Positions 3,604-54,110 are shown, counted from the first letter of the whole stretch. The stretch: 60,819 bases of DNA, filler included, from Sphacelaria rigidula (GCA_964200075.2; 5 parts of 5 records of this genome joined end to end with filler, not necessarily neighbours in it); one strand, 5' to 3'. Notes: generated by a model from the letters alone, not told the origin. Translations and numbers: made by a program.

Positions 3604-6600
3604 CTGCGGATGTTCGGAAGTTTCGGGGCCGGACGAAAACGGGAGAGCGGGCAGAGATCCAGGATGGACTTGAAACATGTTTCAGACACCCAAGACACAG
3701 TTTGAACATTCGAGCAACGTATGATGGACACTCATCGCCCTGCGCTTGTACTCTTCCTCCGTACCGCCGGGAAGCCCCATGTCCAAGGGAGCGCGAAACA
3801 GATTATATATGATGAAGCGAATCGAGCGACCTCTCGCCGTGACGGCCAGTCCGTGATTGTTTTGAAATGAGGGTTACACTCTGTCGACCCGCAATTCCCC
3901 CCCTTGAATACATCATAGACCCAGTTTTTTTAGCGTTGTTTGTTGGCTTGCTCCGGGGAACCGAACTAGTTCTCCGATTGTTTCGACTTTGACTCTTGGT
4001 TCATCAGTTCTTCGCCACGATCGGAACACTTCCGTTCTCCCCTGGAATCGGAGACTCAAATCAGGGAATATGCCGGCGGCGGGTCCTGATTTGGGCAAAA
4101 AGGGGAAGGACTTCGAAATTACGTCCAAAGCATCCGAGATTTGATCTGGTTTCCTCGGAGGCAACCGAGAAACATCAACCCACGGATTGAGGTCCGAGAA
4201 ATCGGTGCCCGGGGCAGACACGTCTGTCGCCAAGCTAAATTCCCCGTTCTTGTACACATCCGGAATGGTTGCCATTATCGTGATCAAGGACCTGTACAAG
4301 CATCACGATTGCTATTTTCAGATAAATGGGATGACTTTTGACGTTCACCTCGACATCGAGATTGGTTCATGTCCTGATCGGATCCACTCTACACGATCAA
4401 CGACTCTGGTAGGGTAAGCGGTATTTGCATCAGTCGTCAATCATCCGCTTGCTCGACCTTCGAATGATGTCAGCTACAAAGTCTCAGCCAGTCAGGGAAG
4501 GCGGGCCGTTTTCGTCAGAGGCGAAGTCAAATGTTGACAAACTCAGATCGGGCTAGAAGAAATGGCGTGACCCTCATCGTGACCAGCGAATAAACTTGGT
4601 AGTTATCATCTGGTATAGTGAAGGCAGAGGCTGCAAAAGCCCTCACTTCTCGAAAAAAAAACAAATGAATGGCCTCGGACGGATCAATTGGAGTCGTTGG
4701 ATCTTCAAAAGACGACGAGTCGTTAGGCTACAAGAGCTGCCGCGGCTCCCCTCCTTCAGAGTATCATCGTTGTTTTTATCCTCACTGGCCATTCGTCACT
4801 TCCTCCGTGTTTTGTTCTACAGCAACTGATCACTAGAACCTATCACTACAAGTGATGACCCGATAGAATTACAACCCCATCGTACACATGAGCCACGATT
4901 CCACCCCAACCCACCGACGTAGTCGCGAGGAGTGTCAGATGATCATTCGAGGCACCCAACGGTCAAGCTGGATGTGATATGGCGATTTCAACGAATTGGG
5001 GGTAAAACGATGAGGCGTGCTGAAACCACCATGGCAATCGAGATTTCATTCCGGCAGCTACTCCTCCTCTCCTTTCCTTCAAAGGAGGTAGGGAGCGGCA
5101 GGTTGATATTTTGATCATATGTTCAGGTTCCCCCATGACGCTTTGACCGCGACGGAAGTCCGTCTGGGACGTCAACAGATTTTCAAAGATTGATGCCGAT
5201 TCAGCACATGCCCCACTCTCGCTGCCCAAGCGTCGAATGAGCGAATCGCCGTGTATGATCACTTCAGGCGTCAATCCCATGCACGGCTCACAGCGGCATC
5301 CGTTTGCTCCTCATCCCAGCAGGTGATTTGTGAAAGACAGGACCACGGTCGGGTCGGCCGCGACGTGTGCAAGAAACGATTTCCGCTACGGTTGCGGTGG
5401 ATTCATGACAGGAATATGTCCCTCGAGCACGAGTTCCTCGAAGTGCCACGCGATTTTCAACGATGATGCCATGGCGTCGTTGAACATGTCGGAACTCAAC
5501 TCGACAAGCCACCAACGGGACGGAACGTCGGATTCGGATCACTTTCTTTACACGTTGTTGCTCAAAGACCAGTAGCCTCGGACGGATCAATTGGAGTGGT
5601 TGGATCTTCAGCAGGAAAAAGGCGGCAGACCCTGTAAGGCTCCCGTACCCGTTTCCCTCCGAAGTATCATCGTTAAGTTTTATCCTCACCGGCTTGGTGT
5701 ACCTCGAGACAGAGTATTGGGGGAAAAACATACGATTTGCATACTACCAGATCCCGAATACAACGGCGGGTCCATGTTCAATAAGCGTCACGAATCGGAG
5801 AAACAACGGAGTCGCAGTAAGCAGGCATCACTCCGTCATTGTCAGTACAGTAATTCGCAGAGGCGCTTCCAGATGGGGCTCAGTTCTCAAAGATTATATT
5901 ACTTTCCCACGATTTCATGTCGAGAAATAAGTTTTCGTCGTCATAGCCCCCTACAGTTCGAAAGATGTGAATATTCTTCTCCTGATTCAACACGGTGTAC
6001 CGTCGTTGTACAAAAATGGGGAAGACTGCCGGTCACATGTGACCCCTCGTATTCATTAATCGCACGGAGCCGTGTAAGTATGAGGCGCACGCATGCTTTA
6101 CATCACGCACACTTGGCTGTTGAAACGTAAATCGCGACAGGTGGGAACAGAGCAGGAGACAATCAGCGGAACGGTCGTTATCGATAACTGGCGCACATCA
6201 TTTTACACCCGGCTACTTACGGTGGGTTCAGGGGAAGGCGAGGGAAAGGAGCTCAGTTCTCAAAGATCATAGACTATTCCACCATATGATGTCAAGTCGA
6301 AGTTTGTGTCGATCATTGCTCCTCGGATTTTCTCCTGCCGCCAGCCGAATATGTTACCACGACCACTACATCAAACCGGACACGTCACGCGAAAAGTGAT
6401 CCTTAGCGATCAGGGTGTGGGGGTGTCGTCACCCCATCCAGAATAGACGCAAGTCTACACCTTGCGGTATATGTGGGCGTATCAGACGGGGTCACACAGC
6501 AGGAACGCCAACACATCTCTAATGGCTCAGATATTTCAAGTTCAAAAATATCTCGTTTCACGCGATGACATCGACATCTTCACGGTTGTTCCAGTACTAC

Positions 6601-11619: not shown

Positions 11620-11794
11620 GTACCTATTACTAATTGATTTGTTACGGGGGGGCGGCCAATTGTGTGTGTTGTTTCGTTATTTGCTTGTTGATTCATTTTT
11701 TAATTCATTTACCATGAGACCCCCTTTTTTTTCTTTTAGTTCTTGTTTCCTTTCCTTCCATTTTCCTTTTCCTGCTCGTTTTTTTTTTTTTTTT

Positions 11795-11870
<76 letters not shown>

Positions 11871-12088
11871 TTATTCTTTTTTTTTCCCATATTTTGTCCC
11901 CCCCCCCCTCCATTTTGTTTTTTTATAGTGAGCTTTTCCATTTTGTTTACCTTCGGTACATGTAAGTTATGATCACGGCTGGGTCCTTCGGGGATAACTC
12001 AATGTGTGACTAATGCCGAGATAGCCCTCCCACAAAAAGTGCAGCGGAATCCGTCCGACAAACCGGCTGCGATCCCACTATTGGGCTC

Positions 12089-12188
12089 NNNNNNNNNNNN
12101 NNNNNNNNNNNNNNNNNNNNNNNNNNNNNNNNTTAATTAATTAANNNNNNNNNNNNNNNNNNNNNNNNNNNNNNNNNNNNNNNNNNNN
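12089..12188. other. Artificial contig linker (also 24273-24372, 36456-36555, 48638-48737)
   Basis: Identical 100-nt N-TTAATTAATTAA-N spacers with stops in all six frames. Segment lengths are 12088, 12084, 12083, 12082 and 12082. Confidence 0.97.
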
Positions 12189-22400: not shown

Positions 22401-23011
22401 CTCAATAGACCACCGGGGCGCGGCGGCTCCATTATGTTCACATACAGCCCTTTCATTCAGACTCGCTGTCAAACAATGGAAGCTCCCGGGAAAAAACGTG
22501 CTCATATAAACGTCACTTTGTTGAGGGGAAGTGCGGTCTCCACAAGCTAGCTGCAGTGGATTCTCTGTTGTTTCCCGGAAAGAAGACACACTACGTATCT
22601 CGGGTGAAACACTCGAGCAACGGTATTACCATCACGGTGACTTGGAGTAATCAGAAATACGACAGAAAGGAAATGGGAACAAATGACTGGGAAAACATGG
22701 AATCAACACAGTCACCAACGCCGGCACGAGACAAAAAATAAAAAGCAGAGGAAGAAACGCAGAATATAATCTACAAACGCCCCCCCCCCCCCCCACACCC
22801 CCCCCCACAACACACCAAAACAACACAACACCACANNNNNNNNNNCCCCCCCCCCCCCCCAAACAACATAAACGAGACATACCGAACACTGGACACCGCG
22901 TGCTGAATACCCATATGCATACCAGGCCAACGCCGGGTGTGTGGAATAAGACAGCATCTAAGCGTACAAAGAGAGACAAACTTGCTCGATAAACACAGCT
23001 GCACTGATCAC

Positions 23012-24089: not shown

Positions 24090-24372
24090 CTGTGTTGCGT
24101 AGATCAACGGGTGGGCGTTTTTGAGTACAATGTCGGTGCACGGGAGGCGGGCTGGCGGGCGGAGTGGAGGGTAAGGGGGGGGGGGGGGGGGGGGGGGGAG
24201 AATGAAATTGGGTGGGGGGGGGGCAAGGGGGGATCGGATCGCTAGAACATGCCAGCGCATTAAAGAAAAGAANNNNNNNNNNNNNNNNNNNNNNNNNNNN
24301 NNNNNNNNNNNNNNNNTTAATTAATTAANNNNNNNNNNNNNNNNNNNNNNNNNNNNNNNNNNNNNNNNNNNN

Positions 24373-32096: not shown

Positions 32097-32929
32097 ATAG
32101 CGTTCAGCACTACAGTACAGAGTAACGTGCGCCCAACGAGAACATCCGTGGAACGAGGCTGGTTCACCCTTATTTGACCGCGAGGGTAGGTCACCTGCTG
32201 AGTCGGCATCGATGTCACTGGAATAAGTACGCGTGATCCACATGGACTACCCGCATCGCGGTCTAGGGGTTAACCGGCGTTGGGCTACAAATGTTCATGG
32301 TTGACACAATTTTACGAGTACCGCTACCCCTAACCCTAACCCCGACACAACGTACACCGAGAACCCTCGGGAAAGGGCGCTACATAGCACCCCTTTGGCA
32401 AAGTGCGGTCTTGGTAGACCCCAAATTGGTGCTTATGGCGCCGATTTCAACGAAAACGCGTTTTGCGCATGCGAAGAGCGCACGGGACTGTCAGCCCTAA
32501 TAGAGATCCGGTTCTCGTTGTACACACTCGAATGAAGTAATATCAACCATGGACATTTGTAGCCCAACGGTTAACCCTTTGATGGCGACCGTAGGTCACT
32601 TGCTGAATCGGCATCAATTTCACTTGAAAAAAGTATCGTGATTCAGATGGACTACCCGCATCGCGGTCGAAGGGTTATGGACCGCGAGGGTAGGTCACCT
32701 GCTGAATCGGCATTAATTCCACTTGAAAAAGTTTACGTGATCCAGATGGACTACCCGCATCGCGGTCTCAGGGTTACCTTTAGACCGCGGTCACCATACT
32801 TGTCCCAGTTAAACCAATGCCGATTCAGCAGGCAACCTACTTTCCCGGTCAAGTAAGGGTGAGCTAGCCTCGTTCCGCGAATGTTTTCGTTGGGCGCACG
32901 TTACTCTGTACTGTAGTGCTGAACGCTAT
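32097..32929. mobile_element. MITE with ~115-bp TIRs, TA flanks, internal ~90-bp repeats and a nested smaller MITE (~32278-32568)
   Basis: ATAGCGTTCAGCACTACAGTACAGAGTAACGTGCGCCCAACGA.. is inverted at ~32815-32929. The unit GTAGGTCACCTGCTGA.TCGGCAT..GGACTACCCGCATCGCGGTC occurs three times. The inner element has TIRs CGTTGGGCTACAAATGT.CATGGTTGA. Confidence 0.8.
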
Positions 32930-33203: not shown

Positions 33204-36200
33204 TCTGGCTATTCTTCCGGCACTCTGTAAGAGGAGTTTGGCTGAGGAGAAGTGGGCTGCAGCTGAGAGCCAGTTTAGCCCGCAGACAGGAGGAGACCAA
33301 CTTCAAGCGCACAGCAGTGGGGACGCTCCGTGAGCTGGAGGACGCACAAGTCAGGCAACAGTCTCTCCGTGAAGTGTTTGAAGCATAGACGACATGGCTC
33401 AAGCGGCGGCAGTGCCGCTGGGGTTGGGTGAGCCACTAGAACCGCCCAAGTATGGCGAAGTGTGAACAAAGGAGGCATCACGCGTTCTTTTCGCAGCATA
33501 TCTTGAGTACGTACAGCGTTTGAATTAGGCTTCTACTTATTAGCGACCCCACATTATTTTCAAGATAAACGGATTCTTCAAAAACCGTGCTAGCATAATA
33601 GGTAGAAGTCTAGTTTGAATCTCGCTAATTCTCCAAGAGTTGCGAGGCATGAGAGGGTGAGCATAGGCCAACTTATCCCTACGTACCTTCATCGGTGTTC
33701 AAAATATATGTACACGGATGGTCGGGCTATGACCCCCGACGAATTGCTAGATGCTGTGAAGCAGCATGCCGGATATACTACACCTGGCGACAAGCATGAC
33801 ACTGCGCGGCCTGCAGCAGATCTGCGTAGAGTTCTGATTATGCCACAAAGCAGTGAGAAATCTGTCAAGGACCGTGCAATGATAGTCAGTTCAGCTATGG
33901 AAAGCTTATTCGCAGAAAACCTGACGGTGCTAGCCATGTACCGTGCGTAGGACAGGAGTTGGTTGCCAGGCCCGGCCGAGTCTGTTCCCATAGCTTTAAT
34001 GGACGGGATTTCGCCCCCGGCATTCAAGGCGTATGTTAGAAGTGTACTAACGTCTGTTGACGGCTGAGAACAAAACCCGACGGTGGAATTCGAAAACATA
34101 TTTGAGGCGGCCGACCAGTGGAAGTTCATTGAAGCACATAGCCGGCGCGATTCTGCAACAAGTGCACGTGGTATGCGCCGCAAACAGCAACAGCAACAGA
34201 AACAACAGCCACCTTCGCGAGCGTCGTCCACTTGCGCGTGCTACAACTGCGGCGACACCGGACATATCATCAAGGACTGCCCGAATCCTCGCGCTCAAGG
34301 CGCTGCACAGGGCAATGAGCGAGATTCATCAGGATCTCGGGGCTGTCGTCACGGTGAACGGGGCCGTGCCAATCAGGGACACGGGCGCGGCGGCCGCGGT
34401 AGCAAGCAATTGGCGGCAGATGGTGGTTCCTCCGCTGCTGTTTCTTCCACTGCATCATCAGGTGGTGACTCTGGATCTTGTGGTTCATCCGTAGCGGGGC
34501 GGACAGTGTACGTGGGAAATGCAAATACGTCGGTGGCTCGTCGCGTAGACATATTTCGTCGTGCGCTGCGTGGTGATTCGCCAGCGCGCGTGGAGCCAAC
34601 GAAGGAGGCTGTGAAGGCCAAGCCTCGCCGCTGCGATCCGGTGAAGACCGTGTGGCTTGCTTCAAGCATCACAGTTTTGGTCGCATTTGGTTTGTTGGTC
34701 AGGAATATTCAGGCTGTGTCGGCGAGTCCGGCGATGGCGGTGCCGAAGAGGGACACATTACGTTTGGTCAGCGACTATCAGGCGGTGAACGCGCAAGTGG
34801 AACAGTCTCCGGGGGTGATGCCAAGCCAAGGAGACATGCGGGAGTTGTTTGGAGCCCAACAACAATATCGGTTTGTCATTGAACACATTTCTGGAGTGCA
34901 CAATCGTTGGGGAGATTTGTTGTCTCGCTGGGTGAAGGTTCCTACCGTGCCTGTTCGTTCTGCCATCGTGTACAGCCCGTGTGATGCCGATGATTCGCTA
35001 CCCTCGTTAGATGTCATTCGTACCGCGCAGCGCAAAACAGTCGGCGATGGCGTTCATTCTTTTCCTACGACTTTTGGTCAACCTGCTATGGCTGATGATG
35101 GTTCGTTCCGCGTGCGTGTTGGCAGTAGTGATGTTTTGCGGATTCCGTCGAATATAAGGCTCTACAAACTCGCTTGATGGTGTGCGCTCACATGCGGTCG
35201 GCTGGTCACCGTGGTGTGGGGCCGACACTGTTTCGTTTGAAAAAATACTGCGTGTGGCCTCACATGGATTCTCACGTTCGTGAGTTCGTTCGCCAGTGTA
35301 TTGTGTAGAAACTCGTGCTGGTGAGATTGTACCTCGTCCGTACGGCGATACCTTGCATGGTACTGCGCCCGGTGAAGTTGTTCACTTTGATTCTCTGTAC
35401 GTCGGAAGTAGCGGACCTGACGGTGGTAATGGTCTGCCTGAGGAGGATGGTTTTCGGTATGTTTTGGTTATCATGGATGATTTGTCCAATTTCGTTTGCT
35501 CGGAGCCGACCGAGGCTTGCACCGCCGAGGTTACGGCTAAGCATTTGCTCCATTGGTGCAAGACGTTGGGGGTGCTGCGTGTTTGGGCTAGTGATACGGC
35601 GACGCACTTCACGAATGAGTGATCGCGCAGCTGAGCGATGCGGTCAAGGTGCAACACAAATTTGCTGTGGCGTAGACCCATTGGTCGAATGGTACTTGTG
35701 AATACATGGTGAACGAGGTTATCCGTGCGTTACGGTCTATTTTGTCGGAGCAGAGATGACCGGTGTCTGAATGGGTTGATGTTTTGCCAGCCGCTCAGTG
35801 GGCATTGAATATTTCTTTTCGCGAACGCTTCCGCAACACTCCGTATTGTGTGATGTTTGTGCGTGCGCCGCGTACAGCGTTTTCCGCGCTGGCTTCTGTC
35901 GCTGGCGGCGAGTGGAACGTCAATGTCATGGATGCTGATTCGTCGCGTGACAAGGTTCAAGGCGTGGTTGACGAGCAAGTGTAGTTTTGTAACGAAGTGC
36001 AAGCTGCTGTCACGGTGTCTCGCAAAACCGAACGCAAGCTTGCTCAGGGCCAGGCTGTGTTGCCCAAGTTTGCAGTTGGTGATTTCGTCGTGTATGCCCG
36101 TGTTCGTAGGCAAGGTGTGACGCCAAAGTTGATGTTCACATGGACAGGTCTGTGGCGAGTGGTCGGAGCCGATCACGCTCACGTGTATTTTGTGGAGAAC

Positions 36201-36455
36201 ATTATTTCTGGCGCCGTGCACTCGGTCCATGTCGCTCGTTTACGCTTCTATCCTGACTCGCAGTTGCATGTCACTGCGAAACAAAAATATGTATTTCAGC
36301 AATCGTATGCTCAAGGGGAATGTCGGATGAATGCTTTGGTGCACGTCGCTGAGAATGAGAATGGTGATCCCATTGTTTTGGTCGATTGGGGGGGTGTACT
36401 CATGATCATGCACGCCATAGTCATAAGACCATTGACCTCGCATCCCTACAAAGCC
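32943..36455 (+). mobile_element. Degenerate Ty3/Gypsy LTR retrotransposon (gag, RT stub, RNase H end, integrase, start of chromodomain), truncated by the contig end
   Basis: CCHC knuckle CYNCGDTGHIIKDC; RT N-terminus (AMAVPKRDTLRLVSDYQAVN); RNase H end (IEHISGVHNRWGDLLSR); integrase (AHMRSAGH, VHFDSLY, VWASDTATHF, WTGLWRV..VHVARLRFY). Stops and frameshifts throughout. Confidence 0.9.
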
Positions 36456-36555
36456 NNNNNNNNNNNNNNNNNNNNNNNNNNNNNNNNNNNNNNNNNNNNT
36501 TAATTAATTAANNNNNNNNNNNNNNNNNNNNNNNNNNNNNNNNNNNNNNNNNNNN

Positions 36556-36920
36556 CAGTGTAGATCTCGGTGGCCTAGCAGTGATAAAATCTCGGCCGAT
36601 CGGTGGCCCAGATAAGGTACGATTGAAAAACAAATCCTAGATCAGGTGTACTTCGGCGAAATGTGGCCTACAAAAGGTAAGCGGTTTCTGGGGGGGAAAT
36701 GTCCGTTTTCGTGTGGCCATATCTCTCGTGTAACATGTTTTTTTCCCGTTTTTTTCGACTCCTGGGTGCCAATGCCCCCCCCGAACGATGTGCGTGACAA
36801 ATCCGGGGCGAAAACGATCAGAAGGGCGTGTTTGGCTGTTTTCGTGTTCCTGGCCATTTTTCGTACCTTTTCTAGGCAAAAAAACGAGAAGGTATACCTT
36901 TTCTAGGCCATTGCCCTTAT
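36556..36920. mobile_element. DNA-transposon terminal fragment, same family as 31370-31722
   Basis: Begins CAGTGTAGAT and is an inverted homolog of 31370-31722. Confidence 0.6.
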
Positions 36921-37722
36921 TTTATTGGCCACATTGGAGCGTAGACGATCAGAATCCAAACTTCGTATTACCTCAGTGGGGCCCGAACATAATGTGTTCT
37001 CAGGTATCTCCAGTGGGAAACAAAGCCAAGTGAAGCGATGATGCTCAGAGACGTTCGTATTATCCATGAGAGAAAACACCGGCGCCCGGGTTCGATCTTC
37101 AGGCCGAACTGAGGGAAAAGTTGCCCCTGCCGCAGGTTGGCCGTCTGGATGTAACGAAACTCAACACCGTACGCTACACCATTGACACAGTGGTAGGCCA
37201 AACACGTGGTCGAAGCAAGAAAAACGCACTTCAATTGCAGGTACCAACTCAATGGCCGCGAGGGATCAAGAGACTGGGGTATAGAGCGGAAGAGGTTCTA
37301 TAATGTCCACACCGTATATACGCGTATACAATCGAACACAAGTTGATCGAAGCGTCTCTACCTGACCCTCAGTGTCGAAATACGAGGAAAACAAAGTGGA
37401 CTGGTGTAAAATACGGTGAGAATGCAAAAAAAAAAACGGTGATGCGGCCACGATACATCTAATATCCAGACAGATTGGACGACACTAAAGTGTCACCGGT
37501 GAAGAGAGACTTGGTGTGAGAATCAACTTCTTATCAGCAAAGGGGACCTTGCTGACCAGGATAGCCGTAAAAGCTCTTTCGACTCTGAGTAAAAGACGTC
37601 GAGGATAGACAGGCACACATATACCACCGTTCTGTCTCTGATATTAAGCCGTCCCTGGTTTCCATATACTGAGGCAGCCGCAACAGGTTCCACTCTACTG
37701 CAAGTCATAAACGGACCCCATA

Positions 37723-38083
37723 TGAGGAAGGCGTATCGCTAGGGTAGACAGAGACCTACGGGGGAGACTGTTGTTGGAGATGTCGCCCTGATGCCGAAGG
37801 AATTCCGATGCTGGCGATGATTTCCTCTTGTGATTGTAGGCAAGAAGTGGATCAGACGTGAATGTGATCACCGTGGGGTGACCAGCTCCTCGGGGGATGC
37901 AGGGTCGTCCTGAGATCCGGCTCTTCCTGGCATCACCCCGAGTTGTCTAGTATCGTTGGCATTACGGGGTCTCGGTAATCTGGTCCTTTCGGACCGTTCC
38001 TAGCTTGTACGTTCATGCGCTGTTTCTTTACACATGTGTGGCATCAATCTCTGATATGTCACTACAAAGAGGTGTCTTCCACA
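37723..38083 (-). repeat. 3' LTR (361 bp)
   Basis: Direct repeat of 45082-45442 with 7 mismatches counted by eye. Adjacent to the polypurine tract at 38084-38097. Confidence 0.92.
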
Positions 38084-38343
38084 CTCCCCCCCCTTTTGTG
38101 CGCCTCAAGCTCATCAGGACAGTGGCTGGTGGGACAAGGCGATCATCAGTTTCGCTAATGATATAATCGTGAAAGTGTTTTTGAGCGATAATCATTTATT
38201 GAGTCACGCCACCGCTAATCGCCAAGGTAACCCTTCTCTATACTGTGGCATTGATTAAACACCTCAAGTAATTTTTAGCTACCTGGTCATTAACAGTGCA
38301 TGCATTGCAAAACCCTGTAAGTTCGTTTTTCCTTCCATGTAAC

Positions 38344-39070: not shown

Positions 39071-40324
39071 TTAACCCTGAAGCGTTTCGCTTAGACGCTC
39101 GAACATTATGTTGAACAGCCGCTTCCGTTCGGTTTTCCCGGTATTTATGGATTTTGGATCTGGACGTGAACACTCTGCTAGCCCAATCTCATGACGGTAT
39201 TTGTCGATGAGATGTTTGCATTGTGGTACTTCAACGGCTCGGTAGCTTAGGTCGGCTGCTGGGCCGTAGCCTTTGAGTCTTGACCGATATTTATAGTTAC
39301 GAAGATTTCTCCGACCTGGTCCTGGAGCTTGATCCACTACTTTTTCCACAGCATATCGTCCTATTTTGGGCAAACTTTCGTCTGGTTGGTCTATCTCTGG
39401 TAGAGGTATCCATTTGCCTAGGAACAACTCGCTCAAATGATCGAAATCTGGTGCTGGTGGTGATTCTCTGTGGTGATATTCCTTCAAGTGAGCGAGATGC
39501 ACTGAGACTTCCTTGGAGTCATCGCCTATGTGATTCTGTACAAAACCGGCAATCGTTTCTCGGTTATCGTGAAAGGTTCTCTCCATGATTATTTGAGTTT
39601 CGGGTTCGGTCCTTCTGAGTCCTGGTTTGGTCGGTAAAGGGGTACCTTTTGACCGGGTTTGAACACTGGGAACGGCTGCCATCTGTTGTTTTTGTTTTCC
39701 TGCTCATTCGCTTTTTCTCATAAAGCTTGTCTCGCAAGTTCAAATTCCAACCGTAAGTTTTCCCGTGTTTCTTCGGAAAATTCTCCGGTGTTGCTGCTTG
39801 GCTTTCCTCACGGATGCCGAGGATGATGTCAACTGGTAATCTGGGCTGTCTTCCGAACAATGAAAAGTACGATGTTTCCTCTACTGTATTATGATGGGAT
39901 ATGTTGCTCGCCATTTCGATGAACGGAAGCATGGATGCCCATTTTTTTTCCAACTGATATATGCATAGCTAACATCGCGTGCATAGTGGAGTGGACTCGT
40001 TCCGACACTGAATTACCTTGCGAGCGTAACGGTGTCGTGCGAGTCTAATTAAAACACAGTTTGATGCAGTGCATTTATTAGCTTGTTTTCAAATTCGGCT
40101 CCATGGTCGGAATGCAGCTTTTCCGGAATTCCAAATGTAGTAAACACTCCATTAATAAGAGTTTTGGCTATTGACGTGGCCTGTTTATTCGGCATCGGAA
40201 TGAGCAAAGCATACCTTGTGAGGTGGTCCATTACGGGCAGTACATATTTACATAGTACTCCAGCATTTGGCATCGAAGCTGTTTTGTATTCGATAGATTG
40301 CTCTGCTTTGCATCGCGCTTCCAA
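39071..40324 (-). pseudogene. Frameshifted retrotransposon integrase and chromodomain
   Basis: VMDHLTRYALLIP..FGIPEKLHSDHGAEFEN; NISHHNTVEETSYFSLFGRQPRLP; YAVEKVVD..YRSRLKGYGPAAD, spread across shifted frames. Confidence 0.85.
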
Positions 40325-41919
40325 TTTTCTTATTCTTTCTTACATTGGAATGGAAAAGGGACAGAAGAGACAGATGGCCCCGATGAAGAAGAAGAGCAAG
40401 TACGGCGTACAAGCAGAAATAGGGACGGAAAGAAAGTAAGGGCTATAGATTGACGATGACAATTCTTTCGCGCATCGCACCACGCAAAGTTCAGACATCA
40501 TCGTTCTAGTCCGAGTGACGTCTTTCCACGTGCGTAAGGGCGCGCAGTAAGGCGGAGCTGAGACCGGAGTCGTCGCTCGGCAAGTTCCCGCTAGGTTCTC
40601 CCCTACTATCCCTGGCCACTACTAGTAATTCCGTCTTGACGTACACGTACAACACCTGTCTCCCGGAATTCCATTGGGAATCAAACGAGGCAGACGTTCT
40701 AGTACTCGTGCCACTTCCCCTGGAAACGGAACTGCGTGACGTAGTGGGCGCCCACCCTGTTGAGATCCCGCGTGAAGGTCAGGCCCTCCTATGAATCGCG
40801 ATCACTTTCACTTGAAAAAATAGGACACAACTCAGAGCCAGCGCATAACCCAGGATACCGGGAGCCGAGTTTCAGATACATCTGATAAGAGACAATTATT
40901 GTGTAAATGATCCTCATGCCAATGCACTCGAACTATATCCCAATAACGTGCAATCGCTACCTTTCTCAAGTCGTCGAAGTGACCTTCACATGAAGAAATG
41001 CGTGCCGATTTCTGCTCTGTATTGGGCATCTCATGCTCACGCTTTCATGCATGTAAGTGCGGGGATAAATTGCCCATTCGGTTGTTGTTGAAAACTTTTG
41101 ATCTCGCTCGCGCGAAGTGTTCGAACGACGGAAACACGTGCTTGCACATGAGATGAGTCATCCTACGATAGGGGGGCGGGTATTTGGTTGCACGAAAAAC
41201 GAGGCTCACATGTGTGTCAGACATCCTTCCACACTTGCGTTACGCTTGTTTTTGGTTCCAAACGGTGTCAGGTAGTATGGATGAGCGTTTNNNNNNNNNT
41301 TCGAACAACCGTTGCTTCTTTCACCGACGATATGACTCGAAATTTCGACAAACAAATGGCCCAAAATACCCCCCCCCCTATCGTAGGATGACTCAGATAC
41401 ATACTACTGTTGCGGAGTCTGCCCATGTTTGTCCTCTGCATTTCAACACAAGATCGAATTTTGAAAATTTCGCAGCCTCGGAATGCAGGTGTCACAGCCT
41501 TGGGGGGCAGTATGTAGCAACAAGTTGATATATTGAAAACCATATTTGATATGTATGCATATCCCATAACCCTCGTTGACTGCTTCCGTCACAAACAAAG
41601 ATGCAGTTGCGGGAACCCAGTGTAGCGCATCACCAGGCGGCAAAACCCACCTTGTAGTGTCACGAAGTGTTCATGCGAAACAAACAGGTGGATGTACAGA
41701 TAGAGCACCCAGCTACTACAGCACTTCGCATATCTCATTACTGCACCTGTCCTTCATGCGGGTCTAGACTAAAATCCTATACTGCATCTGCACACAAGCC
41801 GTAAATTTCCGAGAACTATCTTGAAGTACCAAGTGGTAAAGTCTACTGCACGTCTGTTGGCACAAATTGATTTGTGGCATGCCTTTTGGCCTGGCACAAA
41901 AAACACGATCACTACTATT

Positions 41920-42442
41920 CTCTTATTTTCGCCTCCCACGACATCTTCACATATTGGTTGCAATCGACTAGCCTCTCCATGCTTGCTGCTTCATCGACGA
42001 CAAGCAAAACTACAGCACAAGGGGATTTGCTGCACAACAGTAGCACTACAGTAGTTTGTAAAGTTTCATAGCTGCCTTGCGGGATCGGATGATCAGCGGT
42101 ACGGTAGCTCCCTTGCGGGATTGAATGATCAATGCGTACGGTGAGGGCACTGCTGGTAGAAAGTGTGTACAACAGTACTTCCAATCTTTTCATGTACAGT
42201 AGTATAATATCAGACATACCGTCGTGGTCTTTGCTTATTTTCGCGCCTTACGACATCTTCACATATTGGTTGCGATCGACTCGCCTTTCCCTGCTTGCTG
42301 CTTCATCGATGACAAGCAAAACAACAGCACAAGGGGATTTGCTGCACAACAGTACCACTACAGTAGTATGTACAATTTCATAGCTGCCTTGCGGGATCGG
42401 ATGATCAGCGGTAAGATAGCTCCCTTGCGGGATTGGATGATA
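41920..42442. repeat. ~210-bp direct repeats with 312-bp period, inside the LTR element
   Basis: CGACATCTTCACATATTGGTTGC..CAGCACAAGGGGATTTGCTGCACAACAG..TAGCTGCCTTGCGGGATCGGATGATCAGCGGTA occurs twice. Confidence 0.8.
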
Positions 42443-44795
42443 CACCATCATTGTAATACAAGTACCGTTGTCTGCTGTCTGCATTGCGGTATCTGTATGT
42501 ACAGTAGGATTTAAAAACTTTTAATAACGCTTTAGGACTTCTGTGTTGTGTTCAGTGTAGTACTCTGTACTACTATGTATACTGTAGGACTTCTGTATTT
42601 TAACCATAGGGATTAAAGTATGTTCGACAGCCTCACCGCGAAACCGGTTCTCAACACAGCCACGGCGGAAGTGGCCACACAAGGCGTTATAGCTGGTTCA
42701 GACTGGATGAAGCGCCTCGCATGGACACTACTGGCAAAACCCCAAGCGTGGGAATAACCTTTACCCCGTTGTGTGTGTCTGCAGCTTTATTGCGGGGCAT
42801 CCATTTTATCCAACTAGCGACTGTACTGTGGTGGTGCTGTAATCTGGTGTGCTGGTATATCTCAGCAGACTGCTGAATGATGCTGCGTTTCAAAGATCGC
42901 TGGCGTCTGTCGCCGCATTGGATTGTTTCGCTGACGGCGGTCGTCGCCGGCGCAACAGTATGAAGTCTCTCTCAGATACTCAGCAAGAGGCGCTCGAAAT
43001 CTCGATGTCTAGTCCAAAGAAGTATGTTTTCAGCATGCTTTGTGACGTGTTCCGTAGCGCTTAGACGCAGGTCCTGCTCAAAAGATGCCGCACAATCAAT
43101 GACGGCGATTTTTCTGTTGTACTGCTCATCATCATGCTTGCGCTGCCGTGCACAAATTTCTGGGTTAGGGTTACATGGTCAAAACCGCTTGCGAATCCCG
43201 AGCCTTTTGGACAAAACAAATGAAATTTCGATGGTCAGTTGTACCTCACCCAAATGTTGAACCTCAAACACGAATCCAGACTGTTATACGTTGCGTCTGT
43301 TCGACGCATGCGCTATTTGTACTCTGCTTATTGCTGCTACGCTTCTGCTCTTGCTCATCTTGTACGTTGTTGACATCTACCCGAGACCTCTTACGTACTC
43401 TTCGTGGTTGTTCCACTATACTTTCAGAAAATGAAACTCTCCAATCTTACAACTCAGAGGTTTGACGATTCTGAGTCTTTTTGTTTTCCTCGACTTCATA
43501 CCGAAGGTTTACTACTTATGCTCCGTTCAGACGAGGGATTTTCCCTTGGGCGTCTTCATGGGTTGTACTTTTTGGCAAACTCTACGTAACTCTGCATGAG
43601 GCGACAGTCTGCCGTCTCGTGCGTGTTTTTGTACCTACAGGGTGCGTACTCGCAACGATTTGACTTCTTCGTTTTACCGCTGGTCTGCTTGTCGTTGTTC
43701 GTGCTTTTATCGTTACTGCCCCTGAAGCGTACACTTTTTACTTCTCCTCCCGCTCCACTTGTGCTCCTGTCCGGGCTGGTAGACCGTTCCTTTAATCGCT
43801 TTCAACTGTGACTAAAGATCCGTTAGGATTGCACCTTGATCGGCTATCATTTCTGCCAAGTGTGTGATCCCTTTGTCCTGAGGTAAAGTGAAGCCTAACG
43901 CTTGCATTATCCACGGAGCTGGCTCCGTTCCCTCCTTATCGCTCCTCTCCAAAGCTTTGTATGCTAGTTCTGCTGCCCGCTCTTTCATGACGGACTGTGG
44001 TGCTGGGGCTTGCGTAGAGGATGAGGACGAGGTTGAAGAATCGCGTAACACATGGAGCCGTCCCGTGGATGCTTGGCGAATATCCATGCTCCGTTCAGAA
44101 TCGTCAGAGTCGCCGCTGTCACCCTTCTCCTCGTGTTGATATGGTGGCTGGGTTGACACGGACGTTAGCCGACGCGGTTATAGCTGGCTGGACTGCGTCT
44201 CTTGACTTTGCAGCCTGTGCCGACGAGGCTCAAGTAGATGGGGTGACATATTTGGATTCACGTTTGATGGTTTTTGCGTTGTACTTCGCTTGAGTTGTTG
44301 TTGTTGTTGTGCTGGCCAGGTAGGTTCTCGTGTGGTTCCTGCCTTGTTGGTTTGACTTCTTGTGAGACGTTTTTATCGTGGCATGGGGTAATGTTACAGG
44401 ATGGATAATGACCCGGTATAGAAGACTATAGGGTAATGGGATTGCGGGTCTGCCAAACCAGTCTTCAGCCCAATGACGATTCATATAAGATAAAGACATG
44501 CTACCCACCTGCTACCGCGCACACGGTCAGAAGAAAGAACGACCTGAAACCATTCCTATCCGAGGGCAAAATTGATATATCGTCTCACGATAACTGAACT
44601 GCACTCCACCATTGCTGACCGCTGAATACGACACCACCCACCCTCCACTAGGGATCGACCTACATGCTACCCGCAGTGCTTATTGCGTGCCGTCTTGCTA
44701 CATCGACTCGTACGGGCAAGATATATCCGTGACATAGTCTCATTGTATCACTACTGTAGCCGTTGTAAACTATAATAGGGGGTCCTAGGATACCT

Positions 44796-45022
44796 TGCGT
44801 GGACAATGCACCCATCTAGTAGGCTACCTTTCAAGTCTAACCAATGCATAAGATTGTCCATGTAACATGGTGTCCAATCTGAGGATCGAACTCGGGTTTC
44901 CACAGGCACAATGTGGTGTACTTACGACTATACTAATTAGAGCCATGCTTTGCGTAGACAATGCACCCATCTAGAAGGCTACCCTTCACGTGTAAACAAT
45001 GCATAAGATTGTCTGTGTAACA
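44796..45022. repeat. Pair of 72-bp TG..CA direct repeats (44796-44867, 44951-45022) flanking the tRNA-like sequence
   Basis: TGCGTrGACAATGCACCCATCTAGwAGGCTACCyTTCAmGTsTAAmCAATGCATAAGATTGTCyrTGTAACA occurs twice, with 8 mismatches. Confidence 0.9.
44868..44943 (-). tRNA. tRNA-His(GTG)-like sequence with encoded CCA, probably degenerate
   Basis: G CTCTAAT TA GTAT AGTCGTAA GTAC A CCACA TT-GTG-CC TGTGG AAAC CCGAG TTCGATC CTCAG ATTGGAC A CCA is a 76-nt cloverleaf. Anticodon stem 5/5, D stem 4/4 (one G-U), T stem 4/5, acceptor 6/7, A73 discriminator. Confidence 0.75.
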
Positions 45023-45081
45023 GTAATGTTGTTTTCTTCTACTGACTGTCTTGCCTGAGTTCTTTTCTGGTGTCGCCAATA

Positions 45082-45442
45082 TGAGGAAGGCGTATCGCTA
45101 GGGTAGACAGAGACCTACGGGGGAGACTGTTTTTGGAGATGTCGCCCTGATGCCGAAGGAATTCCGATGCTGGCGATGATTTCCTCTTATGATTGTAGGC
45201 AAAAAGTGGATCAGACGTGAATGTGATCACCGTGGGGTGACCAGCTCCTCGGGGGATGCAGGGTCGTCCTGAGATCCGGCTCTTCCTGGCATCACCCCGA
45301 GTTGTCTAGTATCGTTGGCATTATGGGGTCTCGGTAATCTGGCTCTTTCGGACCGTTCCTAGCTTGTACGTTCATGCGCTGTTTCTTTATACATGTGTGG
45401 CATCAATCTCTGATATGTCACTACAAAGAGGTGTCTTCCACA
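45082..45442 (-). repeat. 5' LTR (361 bp)
   Basis: Direct repeat of 37723-38083. Followed on the - strand by TAT-TGGCGACACCAG (PBS). Confidence 0.92.
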
Positions 45443-45448
45443 CTTACA

Positions 45449-45800
45449 CTGTGTGTGTTGTCGTCCAATCTATTCTGGACGCCGGTCTACACCTTTCGGT
45501 ACATGTGGGCGCACCAGCCGGGGTCACACAGGAACATCAACACAGGAGTTTTTTTTTTTTATTTGATTGAGTGCTCCACCTTCCTTCTGCGGTGCTTGCC
45601 TTTGTTTTATATCGCGAGAGGGGTTCAGCGGTCCCTTTCCCTCGTCGACTATTCAGTCGTATTTTGTCTACCCACGACGAAGTCGCTCTCCACTGTTGAG
45701 CATCGTTTGAGAAAAAATGCGAGATCGCTCCGAGATTCGAACCCACGACCCAACCGTCAGACGATCTTGAGGTTACCAACTGAGCCACCGGGGCGACCGG
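45449..45800 (-). mobile_element. tRNA-derived SINE; a 3'-end copy also lies at ~6415-6515 in the COX17 intron
   Basis: The head has an A box (TGGCTCAGTTGG) and a B box (GGTTCGAATC) but no full cloverleaf. The 3' part (GACGC..GTCTACACCTT.CGGTA.ATGTGGGCG..GGGGTCACACAG) recurs at ~6446-6500. Short (CA)n tail. Confidence 0.7.
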
Positions 45801-48577: not shown

Positions 48578-48790
48578 ACAGTGTTTTCGTGAGATTGAGA
48601 GTAGATGATACGATTGAGAGTGAAAAGCGGTCAATCANNNNNNNNNNNNNNNNNNNNNNNNNNNNNNNNNNNNNNNNNNNNTTAATTAATTAANNNNNNN
48701 NNNNNNNNNNNNNNNNNNNNNNNNNNNNNNNNNNNNNCCGCTTTTCACTCTCAATCGTATCATCTACTCTCAGTCTCACGAAAACACTGT
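48578..48790. repeat. MITE TIR copies at the end of contig 4 (48578-48637) and the start of contig 5 (48738-48790)
   Basis: Same TIR as 380-667, in opposite orientations on either side of the linker. Confidence 0.75.
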
Positions 48791-49690: not shown

Positions 49691-50347
49691 GATGCTCAAT
49701 CTTTAACCAACAATGAACACATCGTACTCAACCACTGCAGTGCTTATCCATCCTTGAGCCCAACTCTTGCTGTGTGCTGCAGGGTTACGGTGTTGGCAGG
49801 GGATAAGTTGTGTGGGGTTTGCACGGTTCGATATATGCTGTGAAGGGCGAGTGATATCTAACGCCGTCTTCTACACTAAGCTGGCATGGTTCGATTCAAC
49901 CTGCTTTCATGTGTGAAGGAAGCACAATTGGTGTTGAGATCCATCACCGTGTGAGTCAGGGTATACAGTATGTCAACCATCGTCTATCAACAGGTCAGGA
50001 ATTTGAAAACTGCTGTTTGGACGCATACATGAGCAGTCGTGTATGGAATGTCAACACCGGAGACTGCCGAAACGTTCCTGTCCCCTCCAACTAATTTTAT
50101 TAGGAGGCAAGATGAGTTTTCGACGATCTCGACAGTTCGAGTGTCATACGCTGGCAACAGCATAGTATATCGGATCTGAACAGCGAAGGCTGCTCGCAAG
50201 TCCTCCTTTTGCCCCATTTTAGGTGAAAGTGGTGGCCACAACGAGGACTTTCGATAATCCTTTGCAGTACATCTCCCACATACTAGTTTATGGGATTCTA
50301 CAGCAGGGGCTGTGGAATCCTTATTTTTCCCTATTTGGTCTAAAACA

Positions 50348-50637
50348 AAATCCGAATTGGGCAAAACGAGGATATGTATAAAAACATGGCAGCGATTCAA
50401 ATCCTCGTTGTTCCCAATTTGGCATTTGAAAAAAACAGAAATACGAATTGGGGAAACGAGGATATGTATAAAAACATGGCAGCGATTCAAATCCCCGTTG
50501 TTCCCAATTTGGCATTTGAAAAAAACAGAAATCCAAATTAGGGAAACGAGGATATGTATAAAAACATGGCAGCGATTCAAACCCTCGTTGTTCCCAATTT
50601 GGCATTTGAAAAAAACAGAAATCCAAATTGGGAACGA
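50348..50637. repeat. 90-bp tandem repeat, ~3.2 copies
   Basis: Unit AAATCCrAATTrGGGAAACGAGGATATGTATAAAAACATGGCAGCGATTCAAATCCTCGTTGTTCCCAATTTGGCATTTGAAAAAAACAG. Confidence 0.9.
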
Positions 50638-51739: not shown

Positions 51740-54110
51740 ACATGTCACACGAACGGTTGGCTTTCCTGAGTGGTAGCTTCAATAGTTCACAGTTGCGGTC
51801 GGCGACAGTGGACATACAATATTTCGCGATAGTCAAAACAACTCAAATGCTAGCGTGCTTGCTGTGGGGTGGTGTTAGCATTTTCACCGATCATCGCAGT
51901 CTGAAACACATTTTCGACCCAAGAGATATTTTTCATCGATGACGAAGGCCATGCCGCAACAGCTTGGAAATTGGAAGAAAGTGGTCGACCAATATCGGTA
52001 TGCCATTGAACCCATTCCTGGAGAGCGCAATTGTCGGGAAGATTTGTGGTCTCGCTGGATAAAGGTTCCTACCGTGCCTCTTCCTTCTGCTGCCGTGTGC
52101 AGTCCGTGTGAGGTCGCTGATTCACTGCTCTCGTTAGACGTCATTCTTACCGCGCAGCGGAAGACAGTCAGCGACGTTTTTTTTCTGTTTCTACGACTTT
52201 CGGTCAACAGGCGTTGGCTGACGATGGTTTGTTTCGTGTGCGTGTTGGCAGTAGGGAGGTTTTGTGGATTCCTTCAGATGAAAAGGCTCTACAAACTCGC
52301 TTTTGATGGTGTGCGCTCACATGCAGTCGGCTGGTCACCGTGGAGTGGCGCTGACTCTGATTCGTTTGAAACAGTACTCTGTGTGGCCCCACATGGATTC
52401 CCACGTTCGCGAGTTCGTCCGTCAGTGTTTGCATTGTTCGTGCTAGTGAGATTGTACCTCATCCGTATGACGATACTGTACATCGTACTGCGCCTGTTCA
52501 CTTTGATTTTTTGTACGTCGGAAGTAGCGAACCTGTAGGTGCTAATGGCTTACCTGACGGGGATTGTTATAGACCCGTTTTCGTTATCATGAATGATTCG
52601 TCCGATTTCGTTTGCTTCGAGCCAACCGAGGCTTGCACCGCCGAGGTTACAGCTAAGCATTTGCTGCATTGGTGCAAGACTTTGAGGGTGCCGCGTGTGT
52701 GGGTTAGTGATACCGTCACGTACTTCAAGAACCGAGTGATTGTGCAGCTGAGCGACGCGTCGTCGAGTGGTGCAATGCGGTCGAATGGTGCAATGCGGTC
52801 GAATGGTGCTTGTGAACTCATGATGAAAGAGGTTGTTCGTGCGGTGCGGTCCATTTTTCCAGAACAATGACGGCCGGTGTCTGAATGGGTTGATATCTTG
52901 CCAGTCGCTGAGGGGGCCTTGAATACTTCTGTTCGTGAACGCCACCGTAACACTTCGTATTGTGTGATGTTTGGGCGTACGCCGGGTACCGTCTTTTCAG
53001 CGCTGGCTTCTGTCTCTGGCGGCGAGTGGGACGTCGATGTCATGGATGCAGATACGTTGCGTGACAAGGTTCTAGGCGTGGTTTGTGATACATGGGCGTG
53101 GTCCCTGCAGACTGGCCCGATTGGTTTTGAAAATCGTCGATCCAGAGGTGTTTCAAACTTTGATGCGATCCCCTAAGAACGCGGTCCTCTCACGCATTAC
53201 AGGTTGACGAGAAAGTCGATTTTGTCACTAAGTGTAAGCTGCTGTCATGGTGTCTCGCGAAACCAAACACCAGCTTGCTCAGGGTCAGGCTGTGTTGCCT
53301 AAGTTTGCCGTCGGAGATTTCTTTTTTTCTTCCCGTGTTCGTGGGCAAGGCGTGACGCCCATGTTGATGTCCACATGGGCAGGTCCATGGCGAGTGGTCG
53401 GAGCCAATCACGCCCACGTGTATTGGGTACAGAGCAGTGTTTCTGGCGCCGTTCCCTCCGCCCATGTCGCTCGTTTGCGTTTCTATGCTGACTCGCGGTT
53501 GCACATCACTGCGGAACTGAAAAATGTATTTCAGCATTCATATGCTCAAGGTGGAAGTCGGATGAATGTTTCGTGCACGTCGCTGAGGATGACAATGGTG
53601 ATGTCATTGTTTTGGTCGATCGGGATGGGTTCGGTGCTTGAGAACGTACGTGGGAGTCTCTTCGCAAGATTCATTCTTCTACGCCTGAATTTGTTTTGGA
53701 GGAACTGCGTACACTGCGGTTGACTCTGGCACCGACGACTAAATTCGCGTCGGAGTATGGCGTTTCTTTGTGAGCTGGCGCATGCGATTTCGCCTTGGTT
53801 TTTGTTGGTTGTCAAGCTCGTTCGTTTGTTTTGAAGTCGCTTCGAGGGTGTTGTAGTCAAATGATGCCAAGCCGTAAGTATTCAGTATAACCGCATGCGT
53901 GATTGGAGCAGTGGAGGGAGGACAAGTGATTCTGGATTGATGGCCTCTGCTGTGTGGCCCCTTGTTGTCTGGCTCGTAATCTATTGAGAATCACTCCGTG
54001 ACAATAACAGGCTAGAAGAAAGGACGTGTCAAGCACGAGGCCAGTAATACTGAGGGATTCCCTTGCTGGAAGTCCTTGTGTCCAGATCGTCTGGCAGAGG
54101 GTATAAGACA
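51740..54110 (+). mobile_element. Decayed Ty3/Gypsy 3' half (RNase H, integrase, chromodomain) plus 3' LTR at 53852-54110; same family as 32943-36455
   Basis: LAFLSGSF..IFTDHRSLKHIF; EPTEACTAEVTAKHLLHWCKTL is shared with the contig 3 copy; WAGPWRV..AHVARLRFY; LTR TGTAG..GACA. Confidence 0.88.
53084..53201. mobile_element. 118-bp insertion with TGTGAT..ATTACA ends and a GGTT target-site duplication
   Basis: The empty site is visible in the contig 3 paralog (GGCGTGGTTGACGAG at ~35961). Here the sequence is GGTT-[118 bp]-GGTT. Confidence 0.8.

Follow-up and report, generated by a model that had tools for sequence, protein, structure and literature searches.

How does the sequence of an entire, finished tRNA-His come to lie in the leader of a long terminal repeat (LTR) retrotransposon, held between two short direct repeats? 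The question is raised by positions 44790-45022 of a 60,819-nt stretch of DNA from Sphacelaria rigidula (GCA_964200075.2), referred to here as the window. The cassette found there consists of a tRNA-His copy with one repeat (B) on its left and another (A) on its right, and sits in the leader of a chromovirus-like element that is read from the minus strand. We propose, with moderate confidence, that an LTR retroelement primed with tRNA-His erred during reverse transcription and that the cassette is the inert fossil of that event. Repeat B would be an R-U5-like LTR end, and the place of the primer-binding site (PBS) would be taken by the complement of the entire tRNA-His, from the CCA to G-1, rather than by the usual ~18 nt. 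The parts of the cassette are listed below, with the kind of evidence for each in brackets.

44771-44777, plus strand: TATA-like TATAATA, 25 nt ahead of the core of repeat B (sequence).
44790-44867, plus strand: repeat B, 78 nt, with a TG..CA core at 44796-44867 and a hairpin with a 12-bp stem (alignment, folding z -3.76, sequence).
44868-44943, minus strand: tRNA-His(GTG) copy, with G-1 at 44943, a 72-nt body, the discriminator A and CCA (ARAGORN, RF00005, sequence).
44944-44944, minus strand: a second extra G 5' of the tRNA (sequence; interpretation tentative).
44945-45022, plus strand: repeat A, 78 nt, consisting of ATGCTT (6 nt) and a 72-nt core, read as a putative further copy of the LTR end, incomplete and attached to the 5' end of the tRNA (alignment, folding, depth step).

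The only tRNA reported by ARAGORN in the window was a tRNA-His(gtg) at 44868-44942 on the minus strand. Rfam model RF00005 matched 44871-44942 over model positions 1-71 of 71 with 41 bits (gathering score 29), with E values of 4.6e-6 (10 kb searched) and 3.7e-7 (801 bp searched). A first-pass annotation, made from the sequence alone, had described a 76-nt tRNA-His(GTG) with CCA and an extra 5' G, and had called it a decaying copy of a mature tRNA; the covariance-model match over the full model and the details that follow agree with it on each point. The CCA is encoded at 44870-44868, after the discriminator A73 (44871), and two Gs precede tRNA position 1, at 44943 (position -1) and at 44944. 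The G at 44944 might alternatively be accounted for by taking the two as G-1 and G1, with a 1-nt insertion, or by non-templated addition by reverse transcriptase (RT). Nuclear tRNA genes of eukaryotes lack CCA, and G-1 of tRNA-His is added by Thg1 opposite A73. Because it carries these marks of a retro-copied mature eukaryotic tRNA-His, namely a 3' CCA in the DNA and an additional 5' G opposite a eukaryote-type A73, the copy looks retro-derived from a finished tRNA, a reading that is well supported. An origin as nuclear mitochondrial or plastid DNA (NUMT or NUPT) was set aside on the basis of A73 and of the D arm, which we take to resemble that of cytosolic tRNA-His.

The copy is damaged. In the acceptor stem C1 is mismatched with C72, and U4-G69 is a wobble pair; the D-loop has CG, with C at position 18, where RF00005 has GG; position 37 of the anticodon loop is C; and the T stem contains a C50/A64 mismatch. 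Features that working tRNAs keep invariant, namely G18-G19, a purine at position 37 and undamaged acceptor and T stems, are thus lost, and the copy is a pseudogene. It is an attractive idea that substitutions such as C37, at the m1G37 site, are marks left by RT at modified bases. No second tRNA was found beside the cassette even at E ≤ 10 in the RF00005 search of 801 bp, and the weak likeness to another tRNA 5' end that had been suspected past 44796 therefore falls away. The repeats themselves gave no match to a tRNA with ARAGORN or RF00005.

This damage bears on the possibility that the cassette is a working module, either a tRNA-like leader signal (for processing, for packaging or as an RNA polymerase III (Pol III) promoter) or a self-spreading unit resembling a short interspersed nuclear element (SINE), with a tRNA-His head and a strong-stop body. 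The tRNA does contain a B-box-like GTTCGATCC and an A-box-like region, judged against the Pol III box consensus, and the first TTTT on its strand comes 296 nt downstream, at 44571. LTR elements can carry tRNA-like Pol III promoters, as shown by the Helenus elements (PMC10886601), in which the tRNA-like part is placed inside the LTR and not between repeats. The copy here is broken at G18, at position 37 and in two stems. Of the features that define a tRNA-derived SINE (Pol III boxes, a 3' tail and a flanking target-site duplication (TSD)), a B-box-like motif is present, and there is neither an A-rich or simple-repeat tail nor a duplication at the flanks. We regard a working module as improbable, and its copy number is taken up below.

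On either side of the tRNA, 44790-44867 and 44945-45022 form direct repeats of 78 nt with 87% identity; their core (44795-44867 and 44950-45022) is 89% identical, with a BLAST E value of 1e-21, and the 72-nt TG..CA cores differ at 8 positions. The first-pass annotation had reported two 72-bp direct repeats. The repeats are real, and their length is 78 nt, reaching 6 nt further left than the TG. These 6 nt match at 4 of 6 positions, or at 5 of 6 with the G that is the majority letter at 44792 in the public-run contigs described below. It follows that the TG is not the edge of the unit, and that repeat A is a partial copy of a longer unit, cut at the tRNA junction. No third, decayed copy of the repeat was found in the flanks, where scores stayed within the shuffle range, and no further copies of the repeat, the tRNA or the leader were found elsewhere in the 60.8-kb window.

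On the plus strand, repeat B ends in ...GTAACA, and its CA abuts the TGG of the tRNA complement with a gap of 0 nt, just as the earlier reading of a mini-LTR CA followed by TGG had it. TGGTGTCCAATCTGAGGA, which starts directly after repeat B, is the exact complement of the last 18 nt of the tRNA (18/18), and the complement runs on past repeat B through all 77 nt. Judged from the sequence, the plus strand is laid out like an LTR terminus with its PBS behind it, the putative PBS being the whole tRNA.

A terminal hairpin distinguishes the two strands of the repeats. Its stem, formed by the first and last 12 bases, is paired at 12/12 positions in both repeats on the plus strand, and at 10/12 and 9/12 on the minus strand, where it is weaker because G-T pairs turn into A/C. 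Three of the 8 differences between repeats A and B fall in this stem, and all of them keep the plus-strand pairing: one is a compensated double change from G:C to A:T, and the other changes T:A to T:G. RNA folding z scores on the plus strand were -3.76 for repeat B, -1.67 for repeat A and -2.11 for the whole cassette, and on the minus strand -0.59, -0.39 and +0.54, respectively. The CA/TGG junction, the strand-biased hairpin and the TATA-like box favour repeat B as an R-U5-like LTR end on the plus strand, antisense to the chromovirus. The position of TATAATA would fit 44796 as a transcription start, with U3 to its left and R-U5 to its right.

DNA joined to the CCA end of a tRNA has one well-documented route of origin, extension from the tRNA 3'-OH, and the RTs of LTR elements normally copy only ~18 nt of the tRNA primer. 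We infer the donor element, the order of events and the way in which the product reached the host leader as follows. Minus-strand synthesis would have been primed by tRNA-His on an element with repeat B as its R-U5. Plus-strand strong-stop synthesis would then have run past its usual stop (m1A58 in retroviruses), copying the primer to its 5' end including G-1. The nascent plus strand would have been transferred wrongly, to a point 6 nt before R in LTR sequence, and R-U5 copied again as repeat A, ending at the U5 CA. The short product, or a chimaera with it, may have entered the leader of the chromovirus lineage, where it was inherited and then decayed. Repeat A as a partial copy fits such a re-landing, because the likeness starts 6 nt before the TG. 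By the description in PMC12657518, a read-through insert has a U5 CA, a PBS and more tRNA complement in one run, followed by an abnormal junction, and all of these are found in the cassette.

Structures of this kind also invite another reading, in which the cassette is a discrete plus-strand LTR element of ~227 bp, mobile and of the type called terminal-repeat retrotransposon in miniature (TRIM) or SMART, with 72-bp LTRs and a tRNA interior, nested in the chromovirus leader. The direct TG..CA repeats, the PBS directly after the left repeat and the retention of the hairpin on the plus strand would all be expected of it, and LTRs of 85 bp are known from a 292-bp SMART element (PMC3281118). Such an element should leave a TSD of 4-6 bp, and none is present (TACCT or CTAGG against GTAAT). 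It should also have a polypurine tract (PPT) before the right repeat, and the sequence before 44945/44951 is ...TTAGAGCCATGCTT. Its LTRs should begin at the TG, and the likeness begins 6 nt ahead of it. We give a discrete element of this type a low probability.

The surrounding element has the following parts.

45076-45444, minus strand: host 5' LTR, delimited by aligning the two LTRs; judged by the family-majority letters and by loose contig ends, its limits fall at ~45080 and ~45442.
45067-45078, minus strand: PBS-like TGGCGACACCAG, 1 nt past the 5' LTR end (sequence; high, uniform contig depth).
39125-40294, minus strand: remains of an integrase core and C-terminal part of a Ty3/gypsy-type pol (Pfam rve; tblastn to residues 264-655 of protein P0001).
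38084-38097, minus strand: polypurine tract AAAAGGGGGGGGAG, directly upstream of the 3' LTR (sequence).
37717-38085, minus strand: host 3' LTR, 97.8% identical to the 5' LTR (alignment).

The LTR pair (37717-38085 and 45076-45444, 369 nt) shows 8 differences, corresponding to 97.8% identity. The host lies on the minus strand, as indicated by the strand of its integrase, by AAAAGGGGGGGGAG abutting the 3' LTR and by TGGCGACACCAG following the 5' LTR. Its PBS is not complementary to the tRNA-His of the cassette, for which it would need TGGTGTCCAATC... instead. The tRNA starts 123 nt past this PBS in the sense of the host, in accordance with the ~120 nt given earlier. The integrase matched Pfam rve with an E value of 2e-7 and 31.7 bits, just below the curated cutoff of 32.6. 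No RT or protease was found with Pfam in the 10 scanned of the 81 host open reading frames (ORFs) of at least 50 aa, and tblastn with residues 1-263 of P0001 over the host element gave no match. Throughout 40300-43550, where protease and RT would be expected, neither Pfam in the ORFs tested nor tblastn gave a pol match; the region holds a 208-nt repeat pair (41922-42129 and 42234-42441, 92% identical), and it may represent an internal replacement or mark a non-autonomous derivative. The host looks like a degraded or recombinant copy of a Ty3/gypsy (chromovirus-like) element.

P0001, which is 65% identical to the host integrase, is encoded on L001, a 4333-nt contig of a bacterial metagenome-assembled genome (MAG). 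Its Ty3/gypsy-type pol with a chromodomain-like tail is probably eukaryotic DNA that was mis-binned into the MAG. No match to 44400-45444 was found in this MAG, and no relatives of P0001 were found in viral_contigs. A likeness was also seen between the host U5 end with its PBS (TCCTCATATTGGCGACACCA, 45061-45086, minus strand) and the 3' end of the tRNA-His in the sense orientation, at 17/18 positions with a 2-nt gap. This is the best non-self match in the window for the last 24 nt of the tRNA (score 25, against 21 for the next). Two of its matching letters, at 45081 and 45083, are private to this copy, the family majority being ...TTACAT..., and the likeness may be due to chance, helped by the TGG...CCA symmetry of a PBS.

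Because the tRNA is in the sense of the host, the cassette could instead have been made by the chromovirus itself. During synthesis on the leader RNA, its RT would have switched to the 3' end of a packaged tRNA-His, copied it to the 5' end and switched back to the genomic RNA 78 nt downstream, duplicating this part of the leader. End-to-end template switching onto small RNAs is known from the U6 chimaeras made by long interspersed nuclear elements (LINEs). Retroviral particles are reported to package many host small RNAs (PMC4997597, PMC4378196). The absence of a TSD agrees with such a capture, two template switches would be expected to leave a duplication on both sides of the insert, and the extra Gs fit non-templated addition. 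Against it, the hairpin is retained on the opposite strand, the CA/TGG junction would be a coincidence, and there is no microhomology at either junction. The loss of host-family likeness exactly at the start of repeat A is not predicted, and no joint skipping 155 nt, as in a tRNA-less leader with a single repeat, was seen among the 15 best-supported contig joints listed (23 weaker ones aside). We consider capture in the sense orientation rather unlikely, though still worth some weight.

The cassette is older than the pair of LTRs that enclose it. The repeats differ at 8 of 72 positions (11%), compared with 8 of 369 (2.2%) for the host LTRs (Fisher p = 0.0015); 1.6 differences would be expected if the repeats were as young as the LTR pair (Poisson p = 2e-4). 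At least 4 disabling changes are present in the tRNA, compared with ~0.8 expected since the LTRs diverged (p = 0.01). The greater divergence of both the repeats and the tRNA thus indicates that the arrangement predates this host copy, and the counts for the repeats and the LTRs rule against a normal insertion made after the host copy arose. A TRIM inserted into this host copy would also be expected to have repeats no more diverged than the LTRs around it, and 11% stands against 2.2%. With this, with no TSD or PPT and with a TG that is not the edge of a unit, the discrete ~227-bp TRIM-like element put forward by the first-pass annotation is not supported.

The abundance of each part was estimated from public sequencing runs. 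Six runs contain part of the stretch, the best being labelled algae metagenome, and Logan contigs of four runs were compared with 44400-45500 at 80% likeness. None of the runs is listed as RNA, and X5, which may be an RNA run, covers the cassette thinly and is no guide to its expression. The depth of locus-exact contigs served as the single-copy yardstick (~33 in X1, 80 in X2 and 15 in X4). Summed contig depth is not copy number and is given here as orders of magnitude only.

Within 45076-45444, LTR: up to ~164,000 in X1, ~390,000 in X2 and ~100,000 in X4, thousands of times single copy.
45029-45065, leader beside the PBS: 35,744 in X1, 49,477 in X2 and 4,476 in X4, ~300-1000 times single copy.
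44955-45028, repeat A: 143 and 104 in X1, 425 and 214 in X2, 27 and 23 in X4, ~2-5 times single copy.
44918-44954, tRNA 5' third and spacer: ~22-39 times single copy.
44844-44917, tRNA bins: ~335-520 times single copy (three DNA runs).
44733-44843, repeat B and left flank: ~14-36 times single copy.

Since repeat A lies at ~2-5 times single copy and the adjoining leader at ~300-1000 times, the cassette is not shared by the host family at large. The first-pass annotation had alternatively suggested that the host family carries a leader-plus-tRNA cassette; this may hold at most for a small subfamily, and fails for the bulk of the family. The depth step falls between bins 44992-45028 and 45029-45065, and likeness to the host family ends within ~6 nt of the CA end of repeat A, consistent with foreign DNA that has a U5 end on its right. 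The low-copy segment in the host leader spans roughly 370 nt (about 44650-45028). Repeat B and the flank to its left make up a separate repeat of modest copy number; in each DNA run, repeat B-like sequence with the majority G at 44792 occurs on at least 18-22 distinct contigs. Both X1 and X4 include a contig that matches 44621-44900 with 83% identity, and in X4 it continues for 82 nt unlike the window; the junction of repeat B and the tRNA is therefore present in at least one old paralogue.

A contig joint between 44516 and 44780, in opposite strands, was seen at single-copy depth in three DNA runs. An inverted copy of that part of the leader is therefore present at another locus, with its breakpoint 10-16 nt ahead of repeat B. 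Exact-pattern scans of metagenome_contigs with a tRNA 23-mer and an LTR 24-mer, and of viral_contigs with the tRNA 23-mer, a repeat 27-mer and the LTR 24-mer, found none.

The depth profile bears differently on the readings introduced above. A TRIM would be consistent with the number of contigs that hold repeat B-like sequence. It would not be expected to have repeat A at ~2-5 times single copy against ~14-36 times for repeat B and its left flank, and the old paralogue has the same left flank back to 44621, which argues that the copies are not at unrelated sites. For a working module, the ~14-39-fold depth of the tRNA, repeat B and the left flank counts in favour, and its absence from the bulk of the host family counts against.

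The high summed depth of the tRNA bins in three DNA runs would also suit capture, at the DNA level, of a chromosomal tRNA-His pseudogene together with adjoining sequence, for instance from a tandem array of a 78-nt spacer and a tRNA, in which the CCA and the G would be due to chance or belong to the spacer. The order of repeat, tRNA and repeat has the look of a fragment of such an array, and a chance of ~1 in 256 for CCA and G is not negligible. The high depth is confined to 44844-44917, dropping ~13-17-fold at the 5' third of the tRNA, and both repeats are far lower, which argues against an abundant array with these spacers. There is no second tRNA or third repeat alongside, and the CA/TGG junction and the plus-strand hairpin would go unexplained. 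We hold little belief in DNA-level capture. The depth of 44844-44917 could come from native tRNA genes, from T-arm matches of other tRNAs, from a SINE or from the PBS of other elements.

Several observations weigh against primer read-through as well. No purine tract precedes repeat A, no TSD is found at 44796/45022 or 44790/45022, and the supposed LTR has no defined left end, with no clean duplicated site there. The cassette is antisense to the host, which calls for a separate entry event and not simple copy-choice among co-packaged sense RNAs. The host element lacks a TSD at its ends as placed, and its LTRs may come from two different copies, which would weaken the age argument. The signs of a mature tRNA are the CCA and the G, with a chance of ~1 in 256, and RT may have added the extra G or Gs without a template, in which case they would not represent G-1. 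A58 is unchanged, although read-through of m1A58 often leaves a change. Lastly, no independent element with a repeat B-type LTR end and a His PBS was found in the exact-pattern scans of metagenome_contigs and viral_contigs.

The cassette invites comparison with several known systems. A strong-stop-DNA origin was reportedly proposed for tRNA-derived SINEs by Ohshima, Okada and co-workers (PNAS, 1993). The minus strand of the cassette resembles what that model calls for, a tRNA-CCA followed by the complement of a 72-nt R-U5-like segment. Unlike a SINE of this origin, it has no tail and no duplicated target site, and shows no sign of Pol III transcription or of SINE spread. The tRNA-His-CCA joined to the R-U5 complement might represent a preserved primer/strong-stop chimaera, heritable and present at ~14-39 copy-equivalents, as a proto-SINE intermediate or the smallest LTR element; we think this unlikely. 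If true, it would be direct genomic support for the strong-stop origin of tRNA-derived SINEs.

The closest parallels to the read-through that we favour are in defective HIV-1 proviruses, for which PMC12657518 describes primer-tRNA inserts reaching 7-54 nt beyond the PBS, with deferred second-strand transfer, ascribed to failure of the m1A58 stop. As in those inserts, the U5 end, the PBS and further primer-tRNA complement form one run here, and the landing after the tRNA piece is abnormal. The cassette differs from the inserts described there in holding the whole tRNA including the extra 5' G, in a re-landing in LTR sequence that puts an LTR end on both sides, and in its setting in an LTR retrotransposon, apparently of an alga, where it is ancient and fixed in the genome.

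Miniature LTR elements offer a second comparison. The SMART element FRetro129 measures 292 bp, with 85-bp LTRs, a 5-bp TSD and TGT..ACA ends (PMC3281118). With elements of the TRIM and SMART type the cassette shares very short direct repeats with TG..CA cores, a PBS placed immediately behind the left one and a lack of coding capacity. It differs from them in having no TSD or PPT, repeats that are 11% diverged and an interior that is only a tRNA copy, and at 227 bp it would be smaller than the smallest element reported in PMC3281118. Helenus, Cassandra and Ajax (termed TRIMp3) carry a tRNA or 5S sequence inside each LTR as a Pol III promoter, and tRNA-His or tRNA-Thr is the predicted product of some fungal Helenus families (PMC10886601). 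The likeness to these lies in a sequence derived from a small RNA on a non-autonomous LTR element. In contrast to the TRIMp3 elements, there is a single tRNA copy here, between the repeats rather than inside an LTR, with the position and orientation of a PBS.

In a further case, a retrotranscribed tRNA-Gly was integrated beside HIV proviral DNA and linked to the loss of sequence from inside the element, with self-primed reverse transcription proposed (PMC12220202). Both cases join a reverse-transcribed cellular tRNA to retroelement DNA. The tRNA-Gly of that account is not the replication primer, whereas the cassette has the geometry of a primer at its PBS. In the open-access literature searched, we found no account of a retrotransposon that contains a primer tRNA copied at full length.

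Most of the documented cases of primer read-through are short inserts in defective HIV-1 proviruses. The novelty of the present case lies in the completeness of the tRNA copy, in the LTR ends that flank it on either side and in its fixation in an apparent algal genome. If read-through is the correct explanation, the same error occurs in retrotransposons in nature, can reach the very 5' end of the tRNA and gives a heritable product. The cassette would then record the primer tRNA of an otherwise unseen element, and would be a candidate for a route by which retroelement sequences acquire tRNA heads, a matter of relevance to how SINEs and tRNA-bearing TRIMs arose. It also serves as a reminder for annotation that a CCA-bearing tRNA call inside a repeat may be a retro-fossil and not a gene.

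Beyond the cassette, the window is rich in other repeats. Two colinear direct repeats of ~1.4 kb, at 34863-36284 and 51990-53519, are 81-88% identical and 17.1 kb apart, and integrase-like matches were found by tblastn on the plus strand at 36917-37396 and 52577-53110. The two repeats look like copies of another gypsy-type element that bracket the chromovirus, in a region of nested transposable elements. A very high-copy repeat, present at 45450-45531 and 6418-6499, starts just outside the host 5' LTR. The summed depth of the stretch peaks at 45450-45531, and hundreds of contigs begin at 45450-45454. The chromovirus lies beside or inside this high-copy repeat.

Paired 44-base N runs, 12 bases apart, recur every ~12,167 bases (12089-12188, 24273-24372, 36456-36555 and 48638-48737), and shorter N runs are found at 22836, 41291 and 58484. 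A repeat family, D1, was rejected as spurious, being produced by the recurrent N runs, which look like masking and not biology. Three further features of the window are a tandem repeat with a 90-nt period in three copies (50342-50632), a 97-nt repeat family, also in three copies (32176-32776), and a T tract of ~170 nt (11725-11893).

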